Shown here one piece after another: positions 593-10,306 of a stretch of DNA of 12,486 bases (position 1 is its first letter; the number at the start of each line of letters is the position of its first letter). Source of the stretch: Candidatus Bathyarchaeia archaeon. Lineage in GTDB: Archaea; Thermoproteota; Bathyarchaeia; Bathyarchaeales; Bathycorpusculaceae. A program made the position numbers and the translations under genes. The stretch spans positions 1 to 12,486 of the forward strand of contig JAVZLK010000042.1 in NCBI GenBank assembly GCA_038883795.1, in the 5' to 3' direction. The notes beneath the pieces were generated by a model that saw only the letters and a program-made list of their open reading frames with translations, ran no database searches and was not told where the DNA came from.

Positions 593-664
593 TTGACAGT
601 TTAAACCCTCATGTGAGGTTAAAGTGCGGGGGGTTAGGTTTATACTATCGTTTAAAACTGTCAA
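593..664. repeat. 72-bp segment bounded by 14/15-bp inverted repeats
   Basis: TTGACAGTTTAAAC (593-606) versus GTTTAAAACTGTCAA (650-664; reverse complement TTGACAGTTTTAAAC), identical except for one T. Internal dyad CCTCA-TG-TGAGG (607-618) and a G-run near 628-633. Confidence 0.75.
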
Positions 665-820: not shown

Positions 821-1398
821 GTGACGAAGAGAGTAAAATGTGAGTACCTATCTGATGATGGTTTATGCAAAGCAGTAGTGAAGAACCCAGAGGGCAGAGC
901 ATTAAGAGATGAATTTTGTGTAAATGAAATTTGGAATTTTTGTTGTTACACGTGTCCATCTCGAGAAGCTTGTGAAATTAGTTGTAATTACTTGGAAAAA
1001 GAGGTTCTGGAAAACCAGTCAACTAACAGGATAAATCAGGAAATATCTAAATATCAAAAGAGTATTGAAAAATTGTCAGTTTTCTTTGCTGAAGGTAAGA
1101 TTAGTGAGGAATCTTATCTGAGGTCTGTAAGAAGGCTTGAAAGCATTATAAATAACTTAAAGGGGCTTAAGAAAAACAATGAAGCGTTTGATGATGAGGA
1201 ACGTAGTTTAGTTGAAAAACCGTCCGCAGCATGGTATTTGGTTCGTTTCTTTTTGGATTAATTGGCGGAGTAATCGGTTATGTTGGAACAAAAGATAGAG
1301 ATGAAGATATGGCGTTTGGCTTGCTTGTTTTTGGCATAATTTGGTCATTTGTTTTGTTTTTCATTGGTTGGGCACTTTTCAATTCCATTTTGCACTGA
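821..1398 (+). CDS. Cys-rich (metal-binding) + SHOCT-like membrane protein, frameshifted near 1244
   Basis: Track ORF 821-1261 has 8 Cys in its first 55 aa and a SHOCT-like helix (FFAEGKISEESYLRSVRRLE). Restoring one C in GTT C[C]G TTT gives ...SAAWYLVPFLFGLIGGVIGYVGTKDRDEDMAFGLLVFGIIWSFVLFFIGWALFNSILH* (TGA 1396-1398), a two-TM C-terminal domain. About 192 aa in total. Confidence 0.75.
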
Positions 1399-1409
1399 GG
1401 AATACAATA

Positions 1410-1601
1410 TGTCTAGAAAATTCAAGGTTAAAAAAGCTCATTGCGAAACTTCATGCCATGGATTTTAAAAAGCTTACTTAAATTCGAGTTTCATGTCTGC
1501 GATACCAAAAATGTCTAGAAGAGGCAATCGCACGCCACGAAGCAAAAATCGCTGAGGCTAAACAGGAGGCAGAAGAAAAGGAAGACGGCGGGCTGCGGTG
1601 A
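1410..1601 (+). pseudogene. Possible remnant of a charged helical/coiled-coil protein gene
   Basis: One frame reads CLENSRLKKLIAKLHAMDFKKLT*IRVSCLRYQKCLEEAIARHEAKIAEAKQEAEEKEDGGLR* with a single internal stop. Protein-like composition but no recognisable family. Confidence 0.25.
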
Positions 1602-1706
1602 AGATTGTCCTTCAAATAGTGTGCCCATACGAAGAACCACCATTGTATACTTGAGTCTTTTTCAAGTGAAAACATTAAATTCAAGAAAAACGCCAATAAG
1701 ACCATC

Positions 1707-1901
1707 ATGAATGTTGAAAAGGTAGAAAAAGCCCTTGCGAATATCCTTGAAGAATTTTATCCAAACAAGTTAAGTATAAAAATTCTCGAAGTCGAGGTCC
1801 AAAAAGACTCTTGGATTGTCAAAGCAGAGGTATCTGATAATCCATCGAAGAGGCTTGGTCATGAAGTAATTATCGTAGTAAAGAAATACGAAATCACTTA
1901 A
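1707..1901 (+). CDS. Small hypothetical alpha/beta protein (64 aa)
   Basis: ATG start, protein-like helix-then-strand pattern, and a BRE/TATA-like GAAAAC-ATTAAAT (1668-1680) about 27 nt upstream. Its stop overlaps the stop of the convergent gene at 1898-1901. Confidence 0.6.
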   Translation: MNVEKVEKALANILEEFYPNKLSIKILEVEVQKDSWIVKAEVSDNPSKRLGHEVIIVVKKYEIT

Positions 1902-2722
1902 CTCTCGTTATAACTTGCTATTTTTCTAATATTCTCTTTTACGAGCTTAATGCCTAGTAAACGTTGTCTGCATTCTCTTTCGTCGTAGTTAAGTTCTTTA
2001 ATTAAATATTCCCTAAGTTTTTCGTCGCTGAACCAAATTTTTACCCATTCAAACGTCCTCTTTTTCATAAGTTCGAATATCTCTTGTTTTCTATTCTCTG
2101 ATATCTTCGGTATTATGTCTAACGGCGGTAGGGTGATAAGACTCAAATGAAAATATAAAACGCTGCGTGTTAAGTCCTCTCGTAAAAAATCATCCATTTT
2201 GTCTAATCCTTTAGACTCGTATAAATATGGCACGTATGCCCTGCAGAAAGCCTTCAGAGCATCCACAACAATACCTTCCGCATGGTTCCTCTTAAAATGT
2301 TCCCATTTTCCAAATATTAAAGGAAGCTTGTCCGCATGCTTCGCTGCAATTTCTTCTATGTACCCCCACGATTCTTTGTTAAATTCTAGAAGATATAATA
2401 AACCAAGTAGCGTTAAGGTACAAAGTTTTTGGGGAGGACCTTTTTTGGATTTCGTTAGCTCTTTCGCTTTTTTAATGAACATTCGTCTTTCGAGTCTCTG
2501 TAACGAGCGTTCTACAGTGCTGTAATAAACTGGAAACGTTTTTATTTTGTTTATTCTAAGAAAACGTGGCAATTCAATTCTTTTTAATTTGCGATAAATC
2601 TTGTAACCCCAACTTACTCCTTCTTTTGCTAAAATTTTTAGGCATAATGAATCTATTAGATGTTGCTTTTGTTTACGCCCGAGAACTTTAAATTTCTCCG
2701 AAGTTTCCAACGGTAATCCCAT
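1898..2722 (-). CDS. Winged-helix (PadR/MarR-like N-terminus) DNA-binding protein with helical C-terminal domain; putative element regulator
   Basis: wHTH pattern: 'ILAKEGVSWGYKIYRKL', recognition helix 'YSTVERSLQRLERRMFI', and wing 'KGPPQKLCTLTLLGL'. Divergent from the recombinase operon. Confidence 0.8.
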   Translation of the reverse strand: MGLPLETSEKFKVLGRKQKQHLIDSLCLKILAKEGVSWGYKIYRKLKRIELPRFLRINKIKTFPVYYSTVERSLQRLERRMFIKKAKELTKSKKGPPQKLCTLTLLGLLYLLEFNKESWGYIEEIAAKHADKLPLIFGKWEHFKRNHAEGIVVDALKAFCRAYVPYLYESKGLDKMDDFLREDLTRSVLYFHLSLITLPPLDIIPKISENRKQEIFELMKKRTFEWVKIWFSDEKLREYLIKELNYDERECRQRLLGIKLVKENIRKIASYNES

Positions 2723-2796
2723 TTTTAATTGCCGTTTTGGGTATACTCGGTTTCAGCGGTTTTACCATGGATAAAAATTAAGTGCGGTTTTTAGTT

Positions 2797-2838
2797 TTGA
2801 ACTTTCAGAATTGAAAATTAAGATTTGAAAAATAAGAG
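2797..2838 (+). repeat. Three tandem 14-bp imperfect repeats in the divergent promoter region
   Basis: TTGAACTTTCAGAA (2797), TTGAAAATTAAGAT (2811), TTGAAAAATAAGAG (2825). Consensus TTGAA-N5-AGA with an exact 14-bp period. Confidence 0.5.
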
Positions 2839-2849
2839 AGTGTGGAAAT

Positions 2850-3119
2850 TTGTCATGTTCAAGAAAGAACAAGGAAGCTTGTGATAAAACATGTACTGTC
2901 AGGTTGAACCTTGTTCTCAGAGCAGATGTAGCAAAGGCGTTAAAGGAGTTGAAGTCCCGAGGTTTAATTAGAAGTTATGCTGATGGGGTTAACCAAGCTA
3001 TCAGAGCTTTTTATACGTCGATAAAAAAGGAAGAACTGTTATCTGCTCGCCTAAAAGCTCTCCAAAGTCCACCGGAAGAAGATTATTGTGATAATGGGAG
3101 AAAAATTTTTAAGTCATAA
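2850..3119 (+). CDS. Ribbon-helix-helix (CopG/MetJ/Arc-like) DNA-binding protein
   Basis: Alternating beta-ribbon 'VRLNLVL', helix A 'DVAKALKELKSRG' and helix B 'SYADGVNQAIRAFY'. The TTG start is uncertain. Confidence 0.7.
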   Translation: MSCSRKNKEACDKTCTVRLNLVLRADVAKALKELKSRGLIRSYADGVNQAIRAFYTSIKKEELLSARLKALQSPPEEDYCDNGRKIFKS

Positions 3120-3146
3120 AATCATATAGCCATATAGTCATATTCG
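3115..3146 (+). repeat. Four tandem 8-bp CATA-core repeats (candidate RHH binding array)
   Basis: CATAAAAT (3115), CATATAGC (3123), CATATAGT (3131), CATATTCG (3139), immediately upstream of the second RHH gene. Confidence 0.65.
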
Positions 3147-3159
3147 TGGTGTGACCCAC

Positions 3160-3690
3160 ATGTCTGCATATAAATGGAGGGGCGTTTTAATACGCTTCGT
3201 TAAAGATGAATTGGAACGGTTGGATGCTTATTGCAGGGAAAATCACCTAAAAAGGAGTTATGTTATCCGTAGTGCAATACGCCTTTACATAACTAATCCA
3301 GACCTTGTTAACGGTGTAATTAGAGTAAGAGATACCGGTTTCGAACTCTCCACAACCATAATGGATAGTATCAGCGCTATTGCCAAGAGAGTCGAGAACA
3401 TTGAAAAGAAACTGGACTCTTTCTCTCAAGAAAATGGTCATAACGATTGGAAAATCAGTGAAAAAATGCTAGAAGCGGTCTTAATAATAAAGAGAAGAAC
3501 TAAAAAGGGCATTATAACGCTAGACCAGTTGAGAGAGAAGTTAAAACGCATAAACCCTTCTTTTGCTCCATTTTTGTACGCTACTAATTCTTCAGGAATA
3601 TGTGTTCTTGATGAAGTTTTGCATAAACTCGAAGAAAAAGGCGAGTTGAGTAGACGTTACGGGGGAATTATCAGTTTTAAAAGTGATTGA
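3160..3690 (+). CDS. RHH + coiled-coil + C-terminal winged-helix protein
   Basis: N-terminal RHH 'GVLIRFVKDELERLDAYCRENHLKRSYVIRSAIRLYI', heptad segment 'ISAIAKRVENIEKKLDSF', and wHTH-like C-terminus 'ITLDQLREKL...LDEVLHKLEEKGELSRRYGGII'. ATG 3160 follows a GGTG RBS; the track start GTG 3151 is an alternative. Confidence 0.8.
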   Translation: MSAYKWRGVLIRFVKDELERLDAYCRENHLKRSYVIRSAIRLYITNPDLVNGVIRVRDTGFELSTTIMDSISAIAKRVENIEKKLDSFSQENGHNDWKISEKMLEAVLIIKRRTKKGIITLDQLREKLKRINPSFAPFLYATNSSGICVLDEVLHKLEEKGELSRRYGGIISFKSD

Positions 3691-4633
3691 AATGCGACGT
3701 GGCAGGAAAATAGACAGGACGAAGCTTCCGCATATACTACAACGCTACGACGATTATATGGCAATTCGCTTTTCGCCAAGGACCCGGGAGGGGCGACTCT
3801 ATCAGCTTATTGAATTTCATGGTTTTATGATGCGAGAGCGGAGGAAAAGCATAGAGCATTTGACAAGGTCAGATGTTGAAGCGTACATAGCTATGCTTAC
3901 ACAACGAAGAGAAAAGAAAGAGATTAAACAAAGAACTGTAAAAGGATGTGCTAGTACTATTAAAATGTTTGCCAAGTGGCTCGTAAGAGAGGAAATACTT
4001 GATTCAAGAGACTTCTATAAAATAGAGGAAGACATAAAGGAGTTGCCTGGAGAAAAAGGCGAAGATAATAGAGTAGCTCTCACCGATGAACAAGAGAAAC
4101 GAGTTTTAACGAAATTATGTGATGTTCTCCTTCAGTTTATAGTATGGTTGGGTTTGAATTTTGGACTGCGGCTCTTAGAATACTGCAATTTACGTATTAA
4201 ACATGTGGAGCTTGACAGAGATATGCCCAGGCTAAAAATCGAACTCAGTAAAGGTCACATAAAGAAAACACGGTATATACCGATTACTCCACGACAAGCG
4301 GAGCAATTCAAGAAATGGTTAGAGTTTAGGGCATCACTTAAGCTTCCTCATGATTTTCTGCTTTATAATCCTCGAGACCCAACAATTGGGTTAACAGTTT
4401 ACAGTCTTGGGTATCTATTCCGTAAAATGTCACAGATGACGGGAGAGCACCTCTATAGCCATAGATTAAGGTATACATATGCTGTTAAGCTCTGGAGACA
4501 TGGAGTTGACCTTTGGACCATAAGTCTTGCTCTAGGTCATGAGAAGGTTGAAACAACTGTTAGATACCTCAAGATACATGAGGAGGATTATTATAATAAG
4601 TACATGAACGGAACCAAAGGTTTATTTTATTAA
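3683..4633 (+). CDS. Tyrosine recombinase/integrase (XerC/XerD-like, with N-terminal core-binding domain)
   Basis: Full catalytic set: R163 (GLRLLE), K190 (SKG), H260-x-x-R263 (HRLR), H286 (LGH) and Y295 (TTVRY). N-terminal SAM-like domain 'SPRTRE...LTRSDVEAYI'. The start may be ATG 3692. Confidence 0.96.
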   Translation: MIEMRRGRKIDRTKLPHILQRYDDYMAIRFSPRTREGRLYQLIEFHGFMMRERRKSIEHLTRSDVEAYIAMLTQRREKKEIKQRTVKGCASTIKMFAKWLVREEILDSRDFYKIEEDIKELPGEKGEDNRVALTDEQEKRVLTKLCDVLLQFIVWLGLNFGLRLLEYCNLRIKHVELDRDMPRLKIELSKGHIKKTRYIPITPRQAEQFKKWLEFRASLKLPHDFLLYNPRDPTIGLTVYSLGYLFRKMSQMTGEHLYSHRLRYTYAVKLWRHGVDLWTISLALGHEKVETTVRYLKIHEEDYYNKYMNGTKGLFY

Positions 4634-4645
4634 CGGTGCGTATTT

Positions 4646-6238
4646 TTGGCTACTTTTTACAATGCCACCAAGAAAATAATTTTAGGAGTTTTAAGTGATG
4701 GCAAACCAAAATCTAGCGCAGAAATTGCTTTATTAACTGGACTAAAACCGAACATTGTATGGTCTGCCTTAAGGAGATATTGGCACAAGAAACTCGTTTT
4801 ACGCTCTAAAATGCCATTAAGGGAGACTTTTCAGAGATTCAGGGGTAGAGCTGGGGTATCTAGGAATCTGCGTTCATACTATCTATATACTTTAAAGCCA
4901 AAGGATATCGAATCTATGGTAATAAATGGTATTTATTTTGTCAGTTTTGAAAATACGCAGAATGCCAAGAAAGAAAGTAAAGCAAAGTTGATACTACGTT
5001 TTTTAATCGAGAATGCTCAAAGGGCTTTTTTCACTACGGATGTGGTTAAAGCACTTTCAGGAATGGGTGTTAAACCTTGTGATGTTATGTCTAATGTGAG
5101 AAGATGGGAGAAAAAAGGTTTAGTTTTTGTCAGAGGCTATAGATTTGATGATAGACAAACACCCTTCAAAGAAGGATATTTAATTACGTATATAGATTCT
5201 TCAAAACTAAGGGAAGAGGCTATAAAAGAGGCTGTTGAAAAAACCGAAAGGGCCCTTGCTGAAAAAGAATCAACGAATCCTACAATACAGAGAGTTCATA
5301 GAATTCGAGATTTAATTCTTGAATCCTCAAGATTAAGAGAAATTATAAGCTTCACTTATATCTGTGAGAGTTTAGGTTGTAGTAAATATGAAGCAGAAGT
5401 CGCAGTCAACAGGGCATTACAATTATACCCAGACTTAAGGGAAATTAAGTTATTTAATACTTTCAGATATTTCTATCACAATTCTATAACTGAAGATGAG
5501 TTGAAAGCTGCCATAGCAATGAAGGAAAATTACATTCGAATGACCAAAGGTAAAGCAAATCGCATTGGACACAACTGGGAAGCTGTTGTGGAGTGGTTCA
5601 TTGATAAATTTACAACAGGAGCTCGCTTTTGGACTCAAAATCATAGGCTACAAGGCATGGATTCCCGTCGAATCACCATACATTTAGTCAAAAGCGTTAG
5701 AGGGCGCATAAGAAATGCTGAGGTTGACCGTGTATGGGAAGTAACTCCAAGCCTTTTTTCTCCTTCAGTCACTTATGTTTTATCATGTAAGTGGGGGTTA
5801 ATCTGTAAACGGGACATTGATGATTTCTTTGACGTTTTAAGGTGGAGCAAGGAATTTGGCGTCAGTACTCCTGAAGGACGGGAAATTAAACAAGGAGTAA
5901 TTGGAATCTTTGCTGGTAGCGCATTCAATCCTAATGAAAGAATCCAGATAAATGATAACTCTATCAGCTTAGCATCTTATGCAGCGCACAGAAATATTCA
6001 ACTTTTGAAAGCTGCCGATTTTAATAGTAAGCTTCATGAGAGAGGCTGTCCACGAGAGGTAAGTGTTCAAAAAATATGCAAAATAGCCAAGGATGAAAAA
6101 CAAGTTAGGGAAATTTTAGAGAGAGTATGGCAAAATCCGCAAGACAGTGAGCATATCTTGGAGTTTGCAATTGAAAGGAACAAAGAAATTTACGAATTCG
6201 AGAGAATGTTAGAAGAGCATAGTTTTCATCATGTATAA
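4646..6238 (+). CDS. Tandem winged-helix protein with C-terminal PD-(D/E)xK (Mrr-like) restriction-endonuclease-fold domain
   Basis: Three wHTH-like units (about aa 5-85, 108-185 and 215-280). Nuclease motifs G-x-x-W-E312, E359-V-D361, VL-S380-C-K382, helix 'KRDIDDFFDVL' and strand 'GIFAGSAF'. GGTG RBS (4635-4638) before the TTG start. Confidence 0.75.
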   Translation: MATFYNATKKIILGVLSDGKPKSSAEIALLTGLKPNIVWSALRRYWHKKLVLRSKMPLRETFQRFRGRAGVSRNLRSYYLYTLKPKDIESMVINGIYFVSFENTQNAKKESKAKLILRFLIENAQRAFFTTDVVKALSGMGVKPCDVMSNVRRWEKKGLVFVRGYRFDDRQTPFKEGYLITYIDSSKLREEAIKEAVEKTERALAEKESTNPTIQRVHRIRDLILESSRLREIISFTYICESLGCSKYEAEVAVNRALQLYPDLREIKLFNTFRYFYHNSITEDELKAAIAMKENYIRMTKGKANRIGHNWEAVVEWFIDKFTTGARFWTQNHRLQGMDSRRITIHLVKSVRGRIRNAEVDRVWEVTPSLFSPSVTYVLSCKWGLICKRDIDDFFDVLRWSKEFGVSTPEGREIKQGVIGIFAGSAFNPNERIQINDNSISLASYAAHRNIQLLKAADFNSKLHERGCPREVSVQKICKIAKDEKQVREILERVWQNPQDSEHILEFAIERNKEIYEFERMLEEHSFHHV

Positions 6239-6272
6239 CTCTCAAATTTTAGGAGCTTTTTTGGGTGAGGTT

Positions 6273-6560
6273 ATGAAAATATCAGAAAAAACCAGATGCT
6301 GGATTTGCGGTCGCAATTCAAGGGAGTTGAAAAACACCATAGAAGCCTATTGGGAGAATGGAGAACTTGAGAAAGATATGGATGTTAATGCTTGCTTTGA
6401 AATTGTCAGCATAAAAAAGTTTTATTCCGAGGAACAGATGAAAATTCCAATTTGCACGATATGTTCTCAACTGATGCTTCAATATATCTCAGTTTATCTA
6501 AAAGAGAACTTAGAGGTTGTTGTTAAGATAGAACAGCCTAAAGTTTCAATAAGCATCTAA
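6273..6560 (+). CDS. C2-C2 zinc-finger protein
   Basis: CWIC and CTIC pairs. Strong RBS GGGTGAGG just before ATG 6273; the track start 6231 overlaps the upstream stop and is an alternative. Confidence 0.75.
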   Translation: MKISEKTRCWICGRNSRELKNTIEAYWENGELEKDMDVNACFEIVSIKKFYSEEQMKIPICTICSQLMLQYISVYLKENLEVVVKIEQPKVSISI

Positions 6561-7235: not shown

Positions 7236-8192
7236 ATGTCCCGCAAACTGCATGTCTCCGTATCGTTTATTGCTATTCTTCTTGGAGCATTTATCATAGG
7301 ATTTGCAATAATTAGCCAAAGGAGACATGAAGAATATTTTTCAACTCCAGAGAAACATGGTGAGAACCCACCTCAACCGCTCACGACACCTATCCTCACT
7401 GCTTATTTGCATGAAGTGAATGGTTATTGGACCAGAGATTCTAATTTGGATTTGCCGGTGTACATTACTAATGTTGAGTTTTCTTTGAGGAATTATGGAA
7501 ATGGCAATGCTGAAAATGTAAACGTGGTGGTTAAAGTTGAGGGGGTAACATATTTAGAGCGAACAGTTCCATTATTAAGACCCTATGAGGAGTGCTCGGA
7601 TTCATTCAGTTTAGAAATAGTCTATGACACCTCAAAAACAATCAGCTTATATGCTTCATGCATGGAATCATCAGATTCTGCCATAATGACAGTTAGCGCC
7701 GTCCTGCCACGTTATTTTGACTCTAATTTATGTATGTTGTTCATAACTCCAAATGAGGCTAACGTTGTCCAAATTAAAAACCAAATTTTAAGCAACAAGT
7801 TTCCCTTAATCCCCAACTGGGTGGCGTTAAGGGATTGGGTGGGGAATAGTGTCACATATCAGTATGATTCAAACGCTTATGGAACTAATGATTATTGGCA
7901 ACTGCCAAAAGAGACGCTTCAGCTAAGAACTGGTGATTGTGAAGACTTTGCAATTCTTCTATGTTCCCTTTTACGTGCTGACGGATGGTCTCCTAACGAT
8001 GTCTATGTAGTTATAGGTAAGAACAATAACAATCAATATCATGCATGGGTAAAAATAAACCTTGGCATTTTAGGCTGGTACAATATTGAACCTCAACAAA
8101 ACGGATGGAGCACTATTATCGGTGACTTCCTGTCGCTTTCTGGATATGAGGCAATATGCTATTTTAACGACTCTCAATATCATACAACCTGA
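7236..8192 (+). CDS. N-terminally membrane-anchored transglutaminase-like cysteine proteinase (BTLCP/C93-like) with a CARDB/Ig-like domain
   Basis: TM helix at aa 7-26, Pro-rich linker, and Ig-like 'LRNYGNGNAENVNVVVKV'. 'DYWQLPKETL...GDCEDFAIL' gives C235, 'YHAWV' gives H269 and 'IEP' gives E285. TATA-like TTTAAAAA near 7201. Confidence 0.9.
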   Translation: MSRKLHVSVSFIAILLGAFIIGFAIISQRRHEEYFSTPEKHGENPPQPLTTPILTAYLHEVNGYWTRDSNLDLPVYITNVEFSLRNYGNGNAENVNVVVKVEGVTYLERTVPLLRPYEECSDSFSLEIVYDTSKTISLYASCMESSDSAIMTVSAVLPRYFDSNLCMLFITPNEANVVQIKNQILSNKFPLIPNWVALRDWVGNSVTYQYDSNAYGTNDYWQLPKETLQLRTGDCEDFAILLCSLLRADGWSPNDVYVVIGKNNNNQYHAWVKINLGILGWYNIEPQQNGWSTIIGDFLSLSGYEAICYFNDSQYHTT

Positions 8193-8438: not shown

Positions 8439-8531
8439 TCTTACCGCAATAAATTATCACCAACAATTACAAATGTTTTTTCCGTTCGTCCTGCAAGCAA
8501 CATTACTCGAATCAATTAATTCAAGTAAACA

Positions 8532-10042
8532 TTATGCAAGCAAAAGAAAGATGCTAAGAGGAACAACCACATACCTCTTTCCCGCTTCAAATCGGGTTCT
8601 CGATGTAATAATTCCAAAGTCATAAGAGCGCCCTGTTTTCATGAAATTATATATTCCCCTTGCGTCATCTTTCTGGATATTGTCAGAGTACTTGACTTCT
8701 ATCGGCAAAAACTTGCCCTCCAACTCAATTACAAAGTCAACTTCAGTCTTTTTATCTTTCCAATAGAAAACATAGTTTGACGGGTCAAAGAGGGAGCTGG
8801 GATATAAGTTAAACATAAAACGAGAAAGATGATTACTAACTACACACTCTATTAACTTACTCTTGTTCTCCAACGAGCTCAGAAAAATTTTACTTAAATC
8901 AAATGCCTTCTTGCCATAAACCCAGCCCCTACAAGCATGAAATATGAATGGGTCTTGAAAGTAAATTTTCTTATTGCTTACATAATCAGCCGACCCCTTT
9001 CCTATATCTAATTGATAAAAGTATGAAAGCACAAAACTATCTTTTAGTATATTTACATAAGATTCCGCCGTTTTGGGGTCTCTAATATCTGTTCCTTCTT
9101 TAAGTTGATTCCAACTAATGTGGGATGAGAGAACTTCAAATATCCTTCGCAATATTTGCCTTGCATAAATTTCTTCATGCTTCCATCTGCAAACATCCCG
9201 TACCATCAAGCTTACGAAAGTAGCGTAAGTATCTTCGGCTATTTCCCGTTTTGAAATGTATTGATGTATAGCTTGAGGTATTCCACCAGTAACTAAAAAT
9301 TGGTCTAAAAGGAGTTCTAATTCTCTAGTAAAGAGAGCAAGCCTTTTCAACTCTAGTGGTATTTTGCCATGAGCAAGTTCAATTAATATTTTGCTTCGGT
9401 TTTTAAGCGACAAAAGCCATAATCCTCGTAGCTCATTGGATAATGTGGGCTCAAGGGTTTCTACGTATTCTGAAAATTTTGCTGGAAGCAGTATCTTATC
9501 GGGGGTCCCGTATTTTAGCCTTTCAATTTTACCTCTTCTGCCAGAAGCGACTCTGACCCTTTTCGAAGGTCTATGCTATGAGAACCTGTTAAGATGACAG
9601 TGCACTCTCTAAATTTTCCGGAGTCTATAAGCAGTTTTATAGCCTTTTGCCACTCAGCTAGCATGGAAACCTCATCGATAAAGAGATACGCCCATTTTTC
9701 AGCTTTCCTTTGTTGAGCTAGGTAATTGTCAATTGCTGTAAACAACTGTTTTGGGGTTTCTATCGCATCGCATGGAAAATAAAAAATGTTCTCTGGAGGG
9801 ACGCCTTCTTCTAGAAGCTTTTTTATCCTTAGTTTTAGTAAAGTAGTTTTGCCAACTCTTCTGGGACCCCTTAGAACATATATAACTTCTTCGTTCTCAA
9901 TAGTTTCACTTAATCTAGGGGTCCACTTGAAAGCTGATTGCGACCAATCTTGGATGTTTACATCCTCATCAGGGAACTTTTTTGTTCTCCACCATTCATT
10001 CCAATAGGCTAGCTCGCTTATACTTAAATTCGTGATGGACAT
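8532..10042 (-). CDS. AAA_14-family ATPase with C-terminal DUF4143 (PD-(D/E)xK) domain; one gene split by a frameshift near 9545
   Basis: Walker A GPRRVGKT, Walker B YLFIDE and sensor 'LTGS'. Restoring one T (TCG CTT [T]CT GGC AGA AGA) gives ESLSGRRGKIERLKYGTPDKILLPAKFSEYV...LWLLSLKNRSK, which joins track ORFs 9515-10042 and 8532-9413. Also 'TGGIP', 'KKIYFQDP' and 'EVDFVIELEGKFLPIEVK'. About 503 aa. Confidence 0.92.
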
Positions 10043-10043
10043 G

Positions 10044-10098
10044 TTTGGAATTTATTCCTAAATTACTTATAAAATTTTTTGGAATACATTCCTAAATT
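10044..10098 (-). promoter_or_regulatory. ATPase promoter: TATA box flanked by two palindromic 21-bp direct repeats
   Basis: TTTGGAATTTATTCCTAAATT (10044-10064) and TTTGGAATACATTCCTAAATT (10078-10098) are 19/21 identical and each contains GGAAT-N2-ATTCC. Minus-strand TTTTATAAG (about 10066-10074) lies between them, 24-32 nt upstream of the ATG at 10042. Confidence 0.8.
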
Positions 10099-10147
10099 TA
10101 ATTTAAACAAGTGGAATGTGCTTGAAAATTGGCTAAAAATAGTGCTC

Positions 10148-10306
10148 TTAGAACCTGATTTCTCCTTTTTCAATTAATTCTTTCACTTTCATTATGGCGT
10201 ATTGGACGGCGTGGCTTCTGTCTGCGAAATAGCCTTTTTCTACTTGTTCATCTATCCATCTTATGAGTTCTGGTAGGATGCTGACTGTTAGTTTGACTTT
10301 TACCAT
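10148..10306 (-). CDS. Ribbon-helix-helix (CopG-family) protein, 52 aa
   Basis: Manual translation: MVKVKLTVSILPELIRWIDEQVEKGYFADRSHAVQYAIMKVKELIEKGEIRF*. Classic archaeal RHH pattern (KLTVSI ribbon; G-x-F-x-x-RS-x-A-V-x-x-A-I). Too short for the ORF track. Confidence 0.9.
   Translation of the reverse strand: MVKVKLTVSILPELIRWIDEQVEKGYFADRSHAVQYAIMKVKELIEKGEIRF

Follow-up and report, generated by a model that had tools for sequence, protein, structure and literature searches.

The closest known system to the one described here appears, judging from its architecture, to be the integration module of the haloarchaeal pleolipovirus SNJ2, and after it the tRNA-targeting Xer-like or pNOB8-like elements. 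The SNJ2 integrase requires two co-transcribed small proteins for integration, and Orf2 and Orf3 of SNJ2 regulate or direct the reaction of this integrase (PMC5861418; what we say of this and of the other cited papers refers to the parts of each that are drawn on here). The subject of the present work is a six-gene module in a 12,486-nt stretch of DNA, called the window throughout, which is an entire contig of the genome of a hot-spring Bathyarchaeia-like archaeon (2.18 Mb in 81 contigs, 87% complete). The module contains a Xer-like tyrosine recombinase (Int316), a 530-aa protein with a predicted array of three winged helix-turn-helix (wHTH) domains and a nuclease-like fold (P530), three further operon genes (RHH89, RHH179 and Zn109, RHH standing for ribbon-helix-helix) and a divergent 274-aa gene. 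We propose, with a probability of roughly 0.45, that the module serves recombination in an element inserting at tRNA-Leu, the tRNA-distal end of which it occupies; Int316 would exchange strands and P530 would assist as its nuclease partner.

The resemblance to SNJ2 lies in a tyrosine integrase with two small upstream proteins, one of which is DNA-binding in SNJ2, in a divergent neighbouring gene, and in a tRNA target with a short core, 14 bp in SNJ2 versus about 10-18 nt here (PMC5861418). The accessory proteins are likened by architecture alone, as those of SNJ2 are of the MarR-wHTH or coiled-coil kind whereas the present ones are RHH-type. Moreover, the 530-aa wHTH-nuclease gene and the Zn-ribbon gene that lie behind the integrase gene here have no counterpart in SNJ2, as far as the parts of PMC5861418 drawn on here describe it.

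With the pNOB8-type and Xer-like elements the present element shares an integrase gene that stays intact after integration and a sporadic distribution, and, as in the pNOB8 type, direct repeats that copy the 3' part of the tRNA bound the elements (PMC6563490, PMC3293823). It is unlike the pNOB8 type in that its integrase gene is part of a conserved six-gene module, and in that a second set of loci (group B, see below) keeps the wHTH-nuclease, usually without the integrase. The survey of PMC6563490 starts from tyrosine integrases, and integrase-less islands of this second kind would therefore escape such surveys. A nuclease-fold gene directly after a tyrosine integrase gene is also known from Yucahu-i of Atabeyarchaeia (Asgard archaea), where a 'Holliday junction resolvase' follows the integrase, genes of helix-turn-helix (HTH) proteins come next, and the authors suggest that the nuclease works with the integrase (PMC11529989). 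The comparison is one of descriptions alone, and by that description the attachment (att) site of Yucahu-i is an 11-bp AT-rich motif that is not derived from a tRNA, and the gene is a resolvase, unlike the 530-aa triple-wHTH fusion found here. Finally, the Caldiarchaeum insertion at tRNA-Thr carries an 813-bp open reading frame (ORF) which, as far as can be told from the parts of PMC3293823 drawn on here, does not belong to the P530 family.

The operon and its attachment site

In what follows G000 is the window's own genome (the window is its contig C42), G001 and so on are other genomes, L008 and so on are P530 loci, and C denotes a contig. We compared 82 loci with a near-full-length P530: 19 in which P530 is at least 62% identical to that of the window (group A) and 63 in which it is 56-61% identical (group B). 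The metagenome loci used are the best 80 of 495, so group B is under-sampled. Several loci of group A are near-duplicates (L006=L024, L021-23, L018-20 and L016-17), after the removal of which 14 distinct P530 sequences plus the window remain, and related loci in the counts are kin, not independent observations. Copies of group A were seen only in metagenome contigs, in G000 and in one further species genome (G041).

The ORF calls agree with a first, sequence-only reading of this DNA in giving five co-oriented genes and a divergent one (Table 1). The operon is tight, with, in order, a gap of 31 or 40 nt, an overlap of 8 nt, a gap of 12 nt and a second overlap of 8 nt, and the region between the divergent gene and RHH89 is 127 nt long (2723-2849). 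The arrangement is conserved: a homologue of Int316 lies directly upstream of P530 in all 19 group A loci, RHH179 is present in 17 and RHH89 in 16 of them, and Zn109 directly follows P530 in 14. The divergent gene occupies the same place in 10 of the 19 by tblastn, and in L008 by clustering. Missing genes are mostly explained by contig ends. Because the same gene order recurs in 19 of the 19 closest P530 loci, the operon arrangement is far beyond chance.

The recombinase is intact, as had been supposed. Int316 matches Phage_integrase (PF00589) with 68.1 bits against a cut-off of 27.1 (E 1.1e-18), the SAM-like N-terminal domain PF02899 with 28 bits against 22.3 (E 2.7e-6), and a PHROG integrase at E 7e-29. 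All 13 aligned homologues share its residues R163, K190, R263, H286 and Y295; the first H (of SHRLR) is a Q in two of the 13. By these matches and residues Int316 is predicted to be a member of the tyrosine recombinase superfamily with an intact active site. The domain labels of the smaller proteins fared less well than those of the recombinase and of P530. In RHH179 the RHH assignment is sub-threshold, with residues 19-47 matching aCcr1_fam (5.4e-8; 32.6 bits, cut-off 60) and RHH_1 (0.0026), and no Pfam, NCBIfam or PHROG family match was obtained for RHH89, the 274-aa protein, P530 or Zn109. The 274-aa protein has a single match, to a PadR chain (E 0.42), and its wHTH label is putative. The zinc finger of Zn109 is deduced from nothing but the two CxxC pairs of its translation, beside one sub-threshold PADLOC row (E 0.0018).

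The same reading had noted that no tRNA lies beside the recombinase. No tRNA gene is indeed present in the window (ARAGORN; Rfam at E<=1), but the statement misleads because a tRNA-Leu-derived attachment core lies at 624-633, within an attachment-like site (593-668) that had been missed. In this site the core GTGCGGGGGG is flanked by an L arm and an R arm. The first 641 nt of the window are 93% identical to G001:C8:125204-125846 of the same genus, after which the match ends. In G001 the PadR-side segment abuts tRNA-Leu(tag), and the core overlaps the last 18 nt of this tRNA gene. A piece of about 40-45 nt around 621-668 recurs in G012, G007 and G000:C37, and the L arm is joined to a genuine tRNA-Leu on the opposite strand, with the anticodon tag in G001 and G000:C37 and cag in G012. 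In G012 and in G000:C37, which has its own tRNA-Leu(tag), the 'L+core/tRNA' half site is preceded on its left, at 650-890 nt, by a 'core+R' half site that shares GTGCGGGGGG with it; a small integrated remnant would be expected to show its attL and attR in this order.

The block made up of core and R arm is found, 83-98% identical and with unrelated flanks, in L009, L011, L014, L021-L023, L028, G012 and G000:C37. It lies outside the divergent gene in L009 (50 nt away) and in L011 (157 nt away), and upstream of the module also in L021-L023 and L028. Since the L arm fuses to tRNA-Leu and the R arm flanks the divergent gene, the module sits at the tRNA-distal end of a tRNA-Leu-targeting integrative element, and not in the middle of an element far from any tRNA. 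The junctions are those of such an element, though no single group A element was recovered with its two ends together, and no distal att repeat was found for the G041 locus within +/-20-38 kb. The truncated PadR-family gene at the left edge of the window would be the tRNA-proximal gene of this element or of a neighbouring tandem element.

The site is a repeat in its own right. In all four public runs compared with the window as Logan contigs (the runs are labelled hot springs metagenome), contigs break at the 41-nt repeat, with loose ends clustering at 621-629 and 662-665 and a coverage that is several-fold higher there, which identifies 621-665 as a multi-copy repeat. The 15-nt arm motif of group A, GTTTAAAnCTGTCAA, was also seen as a promoter-like box before P530 in one group B clade (L044, L045, L054, L056, L061, L073, L074 and L093), 39-72 nt upstream of the P530 match where it could be placed (L093 is unplaced), so the att arms may double as promoters or operators. 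It has 31 matches in 1.39 Mb, almost all of them at these sites. In addition, L008:1135-5109 holds three complete L-core-R sites 1.5-2.1 kb apart that bound small gene sets, as if mini-elements or cassettes had been stacked in tandem at a single attachment site.

Two other types of recombinase system were considered and set aside. An integrase of the SSV type ('suicidal'), whose gene contains the att site and is split by integration, does not fit a core at 624-633 that is about 3 kb from the intact Int316 gene, and L009 and L011 likewise have a whole integrase, with the core+R block outside the divergent gene. An operon of two or three tyrosine recombinase genes, as in the Tn554 or RIT type, does not fit a contig with a single PF00589 match (G000:C42:4079-4579).

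Table 1. Coordinates in the window of the attachment-like site, the module and the genes next to them.
Feature	Position	Strand	Basis or remark
PadR-family regulator gene, 3' end truncated by the contig end	2-421	-	PadR 3.5e-15
L arm	593-623		Starts with TTGACAGTTTAAAC, an inverted copy of the R-arm motif
Attachment core GTGCGGGGGG	624-633		Reverse complement of the 3' acceptor end of tRNA-Leu
R arm	634-664		Ends in GTTTAAAACTGTCAA; core and R arm make up a block of 41 nt with sharp boundaries
Small cargo ORFs of 146, 55 and 64 aa, between R arm and module	821-1901	+	ORF calls
Divergent 274-aa gene, putative regulator	1898-2722	-	ORF call
RHH89, 89 aa, first gene of the operon	2850-3119	+	ORF call
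RHH179, 179 aa	3151-3690 (GTG at 3151, or ATG at 3160)	+	ORF call
Int316, 316-aa Xer-like tyrosine recombinase	3683-4633	+	PF00589, PF02899
P530, 530 aa	4646-6238	+	ORF call, AlphaFold2 model
Zn109, 109 aa, two CxxC pairs	6231-6560	+	Translation

The P530 family and its two genomic settings

P530 belongs to an uncharacterised archaeal family. There are 726 relatives at E<=1e-3 among 8000 scored candidates, the family comprises more than 700 clusters at 90% identity, and those relatives that bear a name come from Bathyarchaeia, Nitrososphaeria and Freyarchaeota and are called 'hypothetical' or 'HTH domain'. When a profile of the C-terminal domain was compared with 1.84 billion representatives, 268 matched at E<=1e-3 and 56 at E<=1e-30; distant, informative relatives were not among them, only proteins of the same architecture and fragments. 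Longer fused forms of P530 were not found either, which is weak evidence. We found no prior description of the family in the literature searched, where supplements may name it differently, so that its absence is not proven.

The distribution is that of a mobile module rather than of core chromosome, in agreement with the sequence-only reading: P530 was found in 3 of 41 relatives and, across the class, in 58 of 401 genomes from 30 of 132 genera, frequently in the form of stop-containing fragments. One copy, at G028:C118:2-1122, is split over three frames and is thus a pseudogene. The DNA of window 1900-6560 has no match in the four same-genus genomes searched, apart from one of 27 nt.

The AlphaFold2 model of P530, built from 32 homologues (predicted local distance difference test score, pLDDT, 78), supports the earlier description of the protein as a triple wHTH with a nuclease fold. 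It predicts winged helices at about residues 7-100, 112-182 and 212-278; after them come two long helices and a mixed alpha/beta domain (326-455), and the protein closes with a helical tail. Foldseek matched the whole model to TFIIIC tauB (6e-5), FokI (2.4e-4), Bax1, MspJI, NucS and AF1548. The C-terminal domain, modelled separately (pLDDT 67), was matched by Foldseek to MspJI, Bax1, AF1548, BbvCI, Cap4 and NucS at E of at least 6e-3, and by VIA-align to AF1548 (Z 7.7), NucS (7.0) and LlaBIII, AspBHI and MspJI (Z 5-7), with SduA, HamA, Card1, Can2, FokI and XisH as further matches. Although the scores are middling, nearly all of these are PD-(D/E)xK nucleases. Sequence searches of the PDB with P530 or the C-terminal profile gave nothing relevant. 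A PD-(D/E)xK nuclease is recognised by an alpha-beta-beta-beta-alpha-beta core with the residues E ... D ... (D/E)xK, and in P530 the residues H309, E312, E359, D361 and K382 do not vary in 72 of 72 distinct full-length homologues. At position 380, 20 of the 72 have E and 52 have S, which makes the motif D...(E/S)xK. The model and these residues suggest a PD-(D/E)xK-like C-terminal domain. The nuclease core varies least (0.76) and the first winged helix most, with a mean identity of 0.53 within group B.

FokI-like type IIS and Mrr or type IV restriction enzymes likewise have several winged helices ahead of a PD-(D/E)xK cleavage domain. P530 shows no sequence similarity to them and has no methyltransferase partner in the window, and its fixed setting next to a tRNA or integrase gene is unlike that of restriction genes. 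A weak structural match of the C-terminal domain (Z 5.3) is to XisH (2okf), one of the excision-controlling factors (XisH/XisI) of the Anabaena fdxN element. XisH is a nuclease-fold accessory factor of a site-specific recombinase; it differs from P530 in being small, in lacking a wHTH array and in working with a serine recombinase.

A single branch, with 100% support, divides group A from its larger sister clade, group B, and their settings are different. The earlier proposal that nuclease, recombinase and RHH genes are linked stands for group A (19/19), but 63 of the 82 full-length loci, i.e. all of group B, lack the recombinase operon. Homologues in random contexts unlinked to recombinases were an outcome that would have overturned the sequence-only reading, and this holds by half: most homologues are not linked to this recombinase operon, but their contexts are not random, as they lie at a fixed distance from tRNA genes. 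A co-oriented tRNA gene was found by ARAGORN upstream of P530 in 35 of the 63 group B loci, in 34 of them at 141-176 nt; of 11 further loci scanned with Rfam, 5 have a tRNA with an intron, 140-152 nt away. In independent species genomes the tRNA-P530 arrangement is seen in 13 of 28 loci. Of the 63 contigs, 27 stop 59-346 nt upstream of P530, at or in the tRNA, which is the usual sign of an assembly branch point. The tRNAs include those for Leu, Gln, Gly, Arg, Ala, Phe, Met, Thr and Ser, the clades of P530 track the kind of tRNA, and the spacer between tRNA and P530 contains a conserved box resembling a B-recognition element and TATA box (BRE/TATA-like).

What lies downstream of P530 differs between the group B loci, sometimes with housekeeping genes within a few kb, and the cargo includes restriction-modification and other defence genes (among them methylases, GmrSD, DpnII and HerA). 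The convergent genes downstream of P530, of 417 aa in group B and 413 aa in group A, show no detectable relatedness. A ParB gene is present in some group A loci. In seven group B loci (L035, L041, L064, L067, L070, L071 and L072) P530 is followed by a block of about nine genes without family matches, including proteins of 417, 344 and 588 aa. This virus-like block stands at no fewer than four different tRNAs, including tRNA-Gln, -Leu and -Met, and may be an unclassified provirus.

Two islands of group B could be delimited. At the G401 locus, the host side is matched by 40 of 41 genomes of genus g17, and the matches end exactly at the 3' end of tRNA-Ser. The island measures 36.6 kb and is bounded by a 53-nt copy of the 3' part of the tRNA (90.6% identical), with host flank beyond. 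It carries genes for Fic, Kelch, NosD, a ferredoxin and insertion sequence (IS) transposases. A six-frame search of it gave no PF00589 match, and no Pfam recombinase other than the IS transposases was found in the 36 of its 39 ORFs of at least 70 aa that were scanned. In the same genome, at G401:C9:139648-140408 (L119), a 380-bp tandem duplication (96.8% identical) ends near position 50 of tRNA-Ser(gct) and leaves a 5' tRNA fragment upstream of the intact tRNA that precedes P530. The G308 island has a 17-nt boundary repeat 13 kb away and contains a tyrosine recombinase. No distal repeat turned up for G023, either in the nearest 27 kb or with a pattern search, or for G248, G314, G273, G245, G265, G108, G290, G201 and G418.

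A hidden Markov model (HMM) of the integrase domain, built from 19 integrases of G000, matches 19 of 19 loci in group A versus 5 of 63 in group B. The five are L082, where the match is directly downstream of P530, L038 and L050, with fragments, and L007 and L074, with weak matches. No PF00589 match is present on the 372-kb contig G023:C24. As a side observation on the genomes themselves, six-gene module apart, G000 holds 26 Phage_integrase (PF00589) matches at E<=0.001 in its 2.18 Mb (22 above the family cut-off, many on short contigs), whereas G023 holds 9, and G000 is unusually rich in integrative elements.

What P530 may do

In the mechanism that we favour, Int316 would most likely exchange strands at the core GTGCGGGGGG, and RHH89, RHH179 and the divergent gene would regulate the reaction or set its direction, by analogy with the operon of the SNJ2 integrase. 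P530 would be a sequence-specific DNA-binding nuclease that recognises the attachment region by its three winged helices and contributes cleavage, processing, targeting, or synapsis and assembly of the recombination site. In group B, where it is the only constant gene at the tRNA-proximal borders of the islands, P530 might work with a recombinase supplied in trans, either the host XerA or one of the many resident integrases (26 PF00589 matches in G000 alone).

There are several points that weigh against this proposal. Direct evidence tying P530 to recombination is absent, and adjacency to a tRNA proves no function in integration, because in group A the tRNA-proximal place is held by PadR, which is not a recombinase. 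The fold matches of P530 are middling (best Z 7.7, best whole-model Foldseek E 6e-5), and confidence in the model is low over residues 330-420. The restriction-modification and defence genes in the island cargo fit a defence role for a stand-alone nuclease, and a distal att repeat was seen in just 2 of the 12 group B islands examined (G401 and G308). Finally, the L-core-R arrangement of the window could be an episomal attP, the meeting point of two elements in tandem (the three copies in L008 hint at this) or a join made by the assembly at the 41-nt repeat, and the public contigs, which break at this repeat, do not discriminate between the three. Co-folding of Int316 with P530 scored 0.00, which counts neither for nor against a contact.

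A bolder proposal is that the P530 family forms a hitherto unrecognised class of nuclease-based integrases targeting tRNA genes, or else obligatory targeting subunits that hijack host Xer recombinases. Such proteins would mobilise islands and virus-like elements in Bathyarchaeia and, going by the names of the sources, in Nitrososphaeria and Asgard archaea. We regard this as rather doubtful. In its strict form, which we hold to be unlikely, P530 itself is the integrase: the winged helices would recognise the tRNA or att site, the PD-(D/E)xK domain would make the breaks, host repair, ligation or recombination would complete the reaction, and group A would represent a P530 captured by, or capturing, a tyrosine-recombinase element. 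This explanation fits the positional evidence at least as well as the one we favour. P530 and its promoter spacer of about 150 nt are the sole feature common to all group B islands, its distance and orientation relative to the tRNA are fixed, as is typical of integrase genes, and its clades follow the tRNA kind. No canonical recombinase accompanies the two att repeats of the G401 island, G023:C24 is devoid of PF00589 matches, integrase-HMM matches are as rare in group B as they are universal in group A (5/63 vs 19/19), and the catalytic-type residues are invariant (72/72). However, hydrolytic nucleases form no covalent intermediate, and we know of no PD-(D/E)xK enzyme that performs conservative site-specific integration leaving att repeats of 17-53 nt, so a precedent is wanting. 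The intact tyrosine recombinase beside P530 in group A would moreover be redundant, the delimited G308 island does carry a tyrosine recombinase, and the 8-40 kb examined may have been too short to include an integrase, or decay of the islands may have removed it.

Another explanation, which we likewise consider improbable, holds that P530 is a defence or exclusion nuclease, similar to Mrr or type IV enzymes or to FokI, that is border cargo without any part in recombination and whose position behind the integrase ensures its expression. The fold matches are mostly restriction or defence nucleases (AF1548, AspBHI, LlaBIII, SduA, HamA, Card1, Can2, MspJI and FokI), the neighbours in the Atlas are Mrr_cat clusters (at 0.87, a lead only), and defence genes such as methylases, GmrSD, DpnII and HerA accompany P530 in group B islands; the window itself encodes an ATPase resembling the PADLOC family PDC-S01. 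On the other hand, cargo is not normally held 141-176 nt from a tRNA with a conserved promoter across unrelated islands, nor would one expect the strict co-operonic spacing of 12 nt behind the integrase in 19 of 19 group A loci. As a member of a known restriction-modification or defence system P530 was rejected, since no PADLOC family passes the threshold (P530 has one sub-threshold row only, E 0.0053, with no stretch passing) and no methyltransferase partner is among the Pfam matches of the window.

It is still less probable that P530 is a replication initiator or maintenance protein of an episome, the winged helices binding an origin and the nuclease domain nicking or processing it. No replication protein was recognised in the window by Pfam and NCBIfam scans, wHTH proteins have been proposed as initiators of small cryptic thaumarchaeal elements (PMC6563490), and the ParB gene of some group A loci would fit. 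Against this, many group B copies have housekeeping genes within a few kb downstream or lie in islands devoid of further plasmid or viral genes, the fold searches brought up no known initiator, and iteron-like repeats were not found in the window, in which repeat pairs are at chance level only. Terminal overlaps that mark circular contigs were absent from the window and from the loci checked.

That the operon is syntenic core chromosome with the housekeeping XerA as its recombinase can be dismissed from the distribution in the genomes searched (the module is not found in four same-genus genomes and occurs in 3 of 41 relatives). What speaks for it is that the best NCBIfam models of Int316 are XerC and XerA, both far under their cut-offs. 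Yet with 96.6 bits against the XerA cut-off of 220 Int316 is only fifth among the genes of G000, where C21:888-1769 is the most XerA-like (173.7 bits, also under 220). The sequence-only reading had itself named this possibility as one that would overturn its view.

Other genes of the window and the meaning of the module

The GC content of the window is level, at 34-46%. Between the R arm and the module lie the small cargo ORFs; homologues of those of 146 and 64 aa sit between two L-core-R copies in L008, and in run X3 one contig joins 665 to 1388. Downstream of the module, at 7236-8192 (+), is a gene for a transglutaminase-like cysteine protease with a CARDB domain that is 68% identical in DNA to G003:C17 and is probably cargo or host-derived. 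It is followed at 8532-10042 (-) by the AAA_14/DUF4143 ATPase, which is split into ORFs of 175 and 293 aa, both of them matching PDC-S01, a candidate defence family of PADLOC. Since one contig of run X2 joins 8442 to 10148 and thereby skips exactly this gene, the ATPase gene is a population indel. The segment 10148-12317 holds the gene of a 618-aa Ig-like (Big_3_5) surface protein, of which an 87%-identical copy is found at G000:C21:16051-18220, on the contig that also holds the best XerA-like gene and further integrase matches. This duplicate may be the reason why the contig of the window ends nearby.

Archaeal integrated elements are usually found via their tyrosine integrases. The abundant and conserved P530 family marks the tRNA-proximal border of islands that are mostly without such integrases, and Bathyarchaeia are among the most abundant archaeal groups of sediments and hot springs. 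If P530 takes part in integration, it would represent a new accessory or catalytic principle for insertion at tRNA genes, and a hidden part of the mobilome of Bathyarchaeia would be exposed. P530 would then also be a compact DNA-targeting nuclease, the first winged helix of which varies most between copies at different tRNA genes. Even on the most ordinary reading, the present locus provides a mapped att site and a recombination module for an uncultured lineage.

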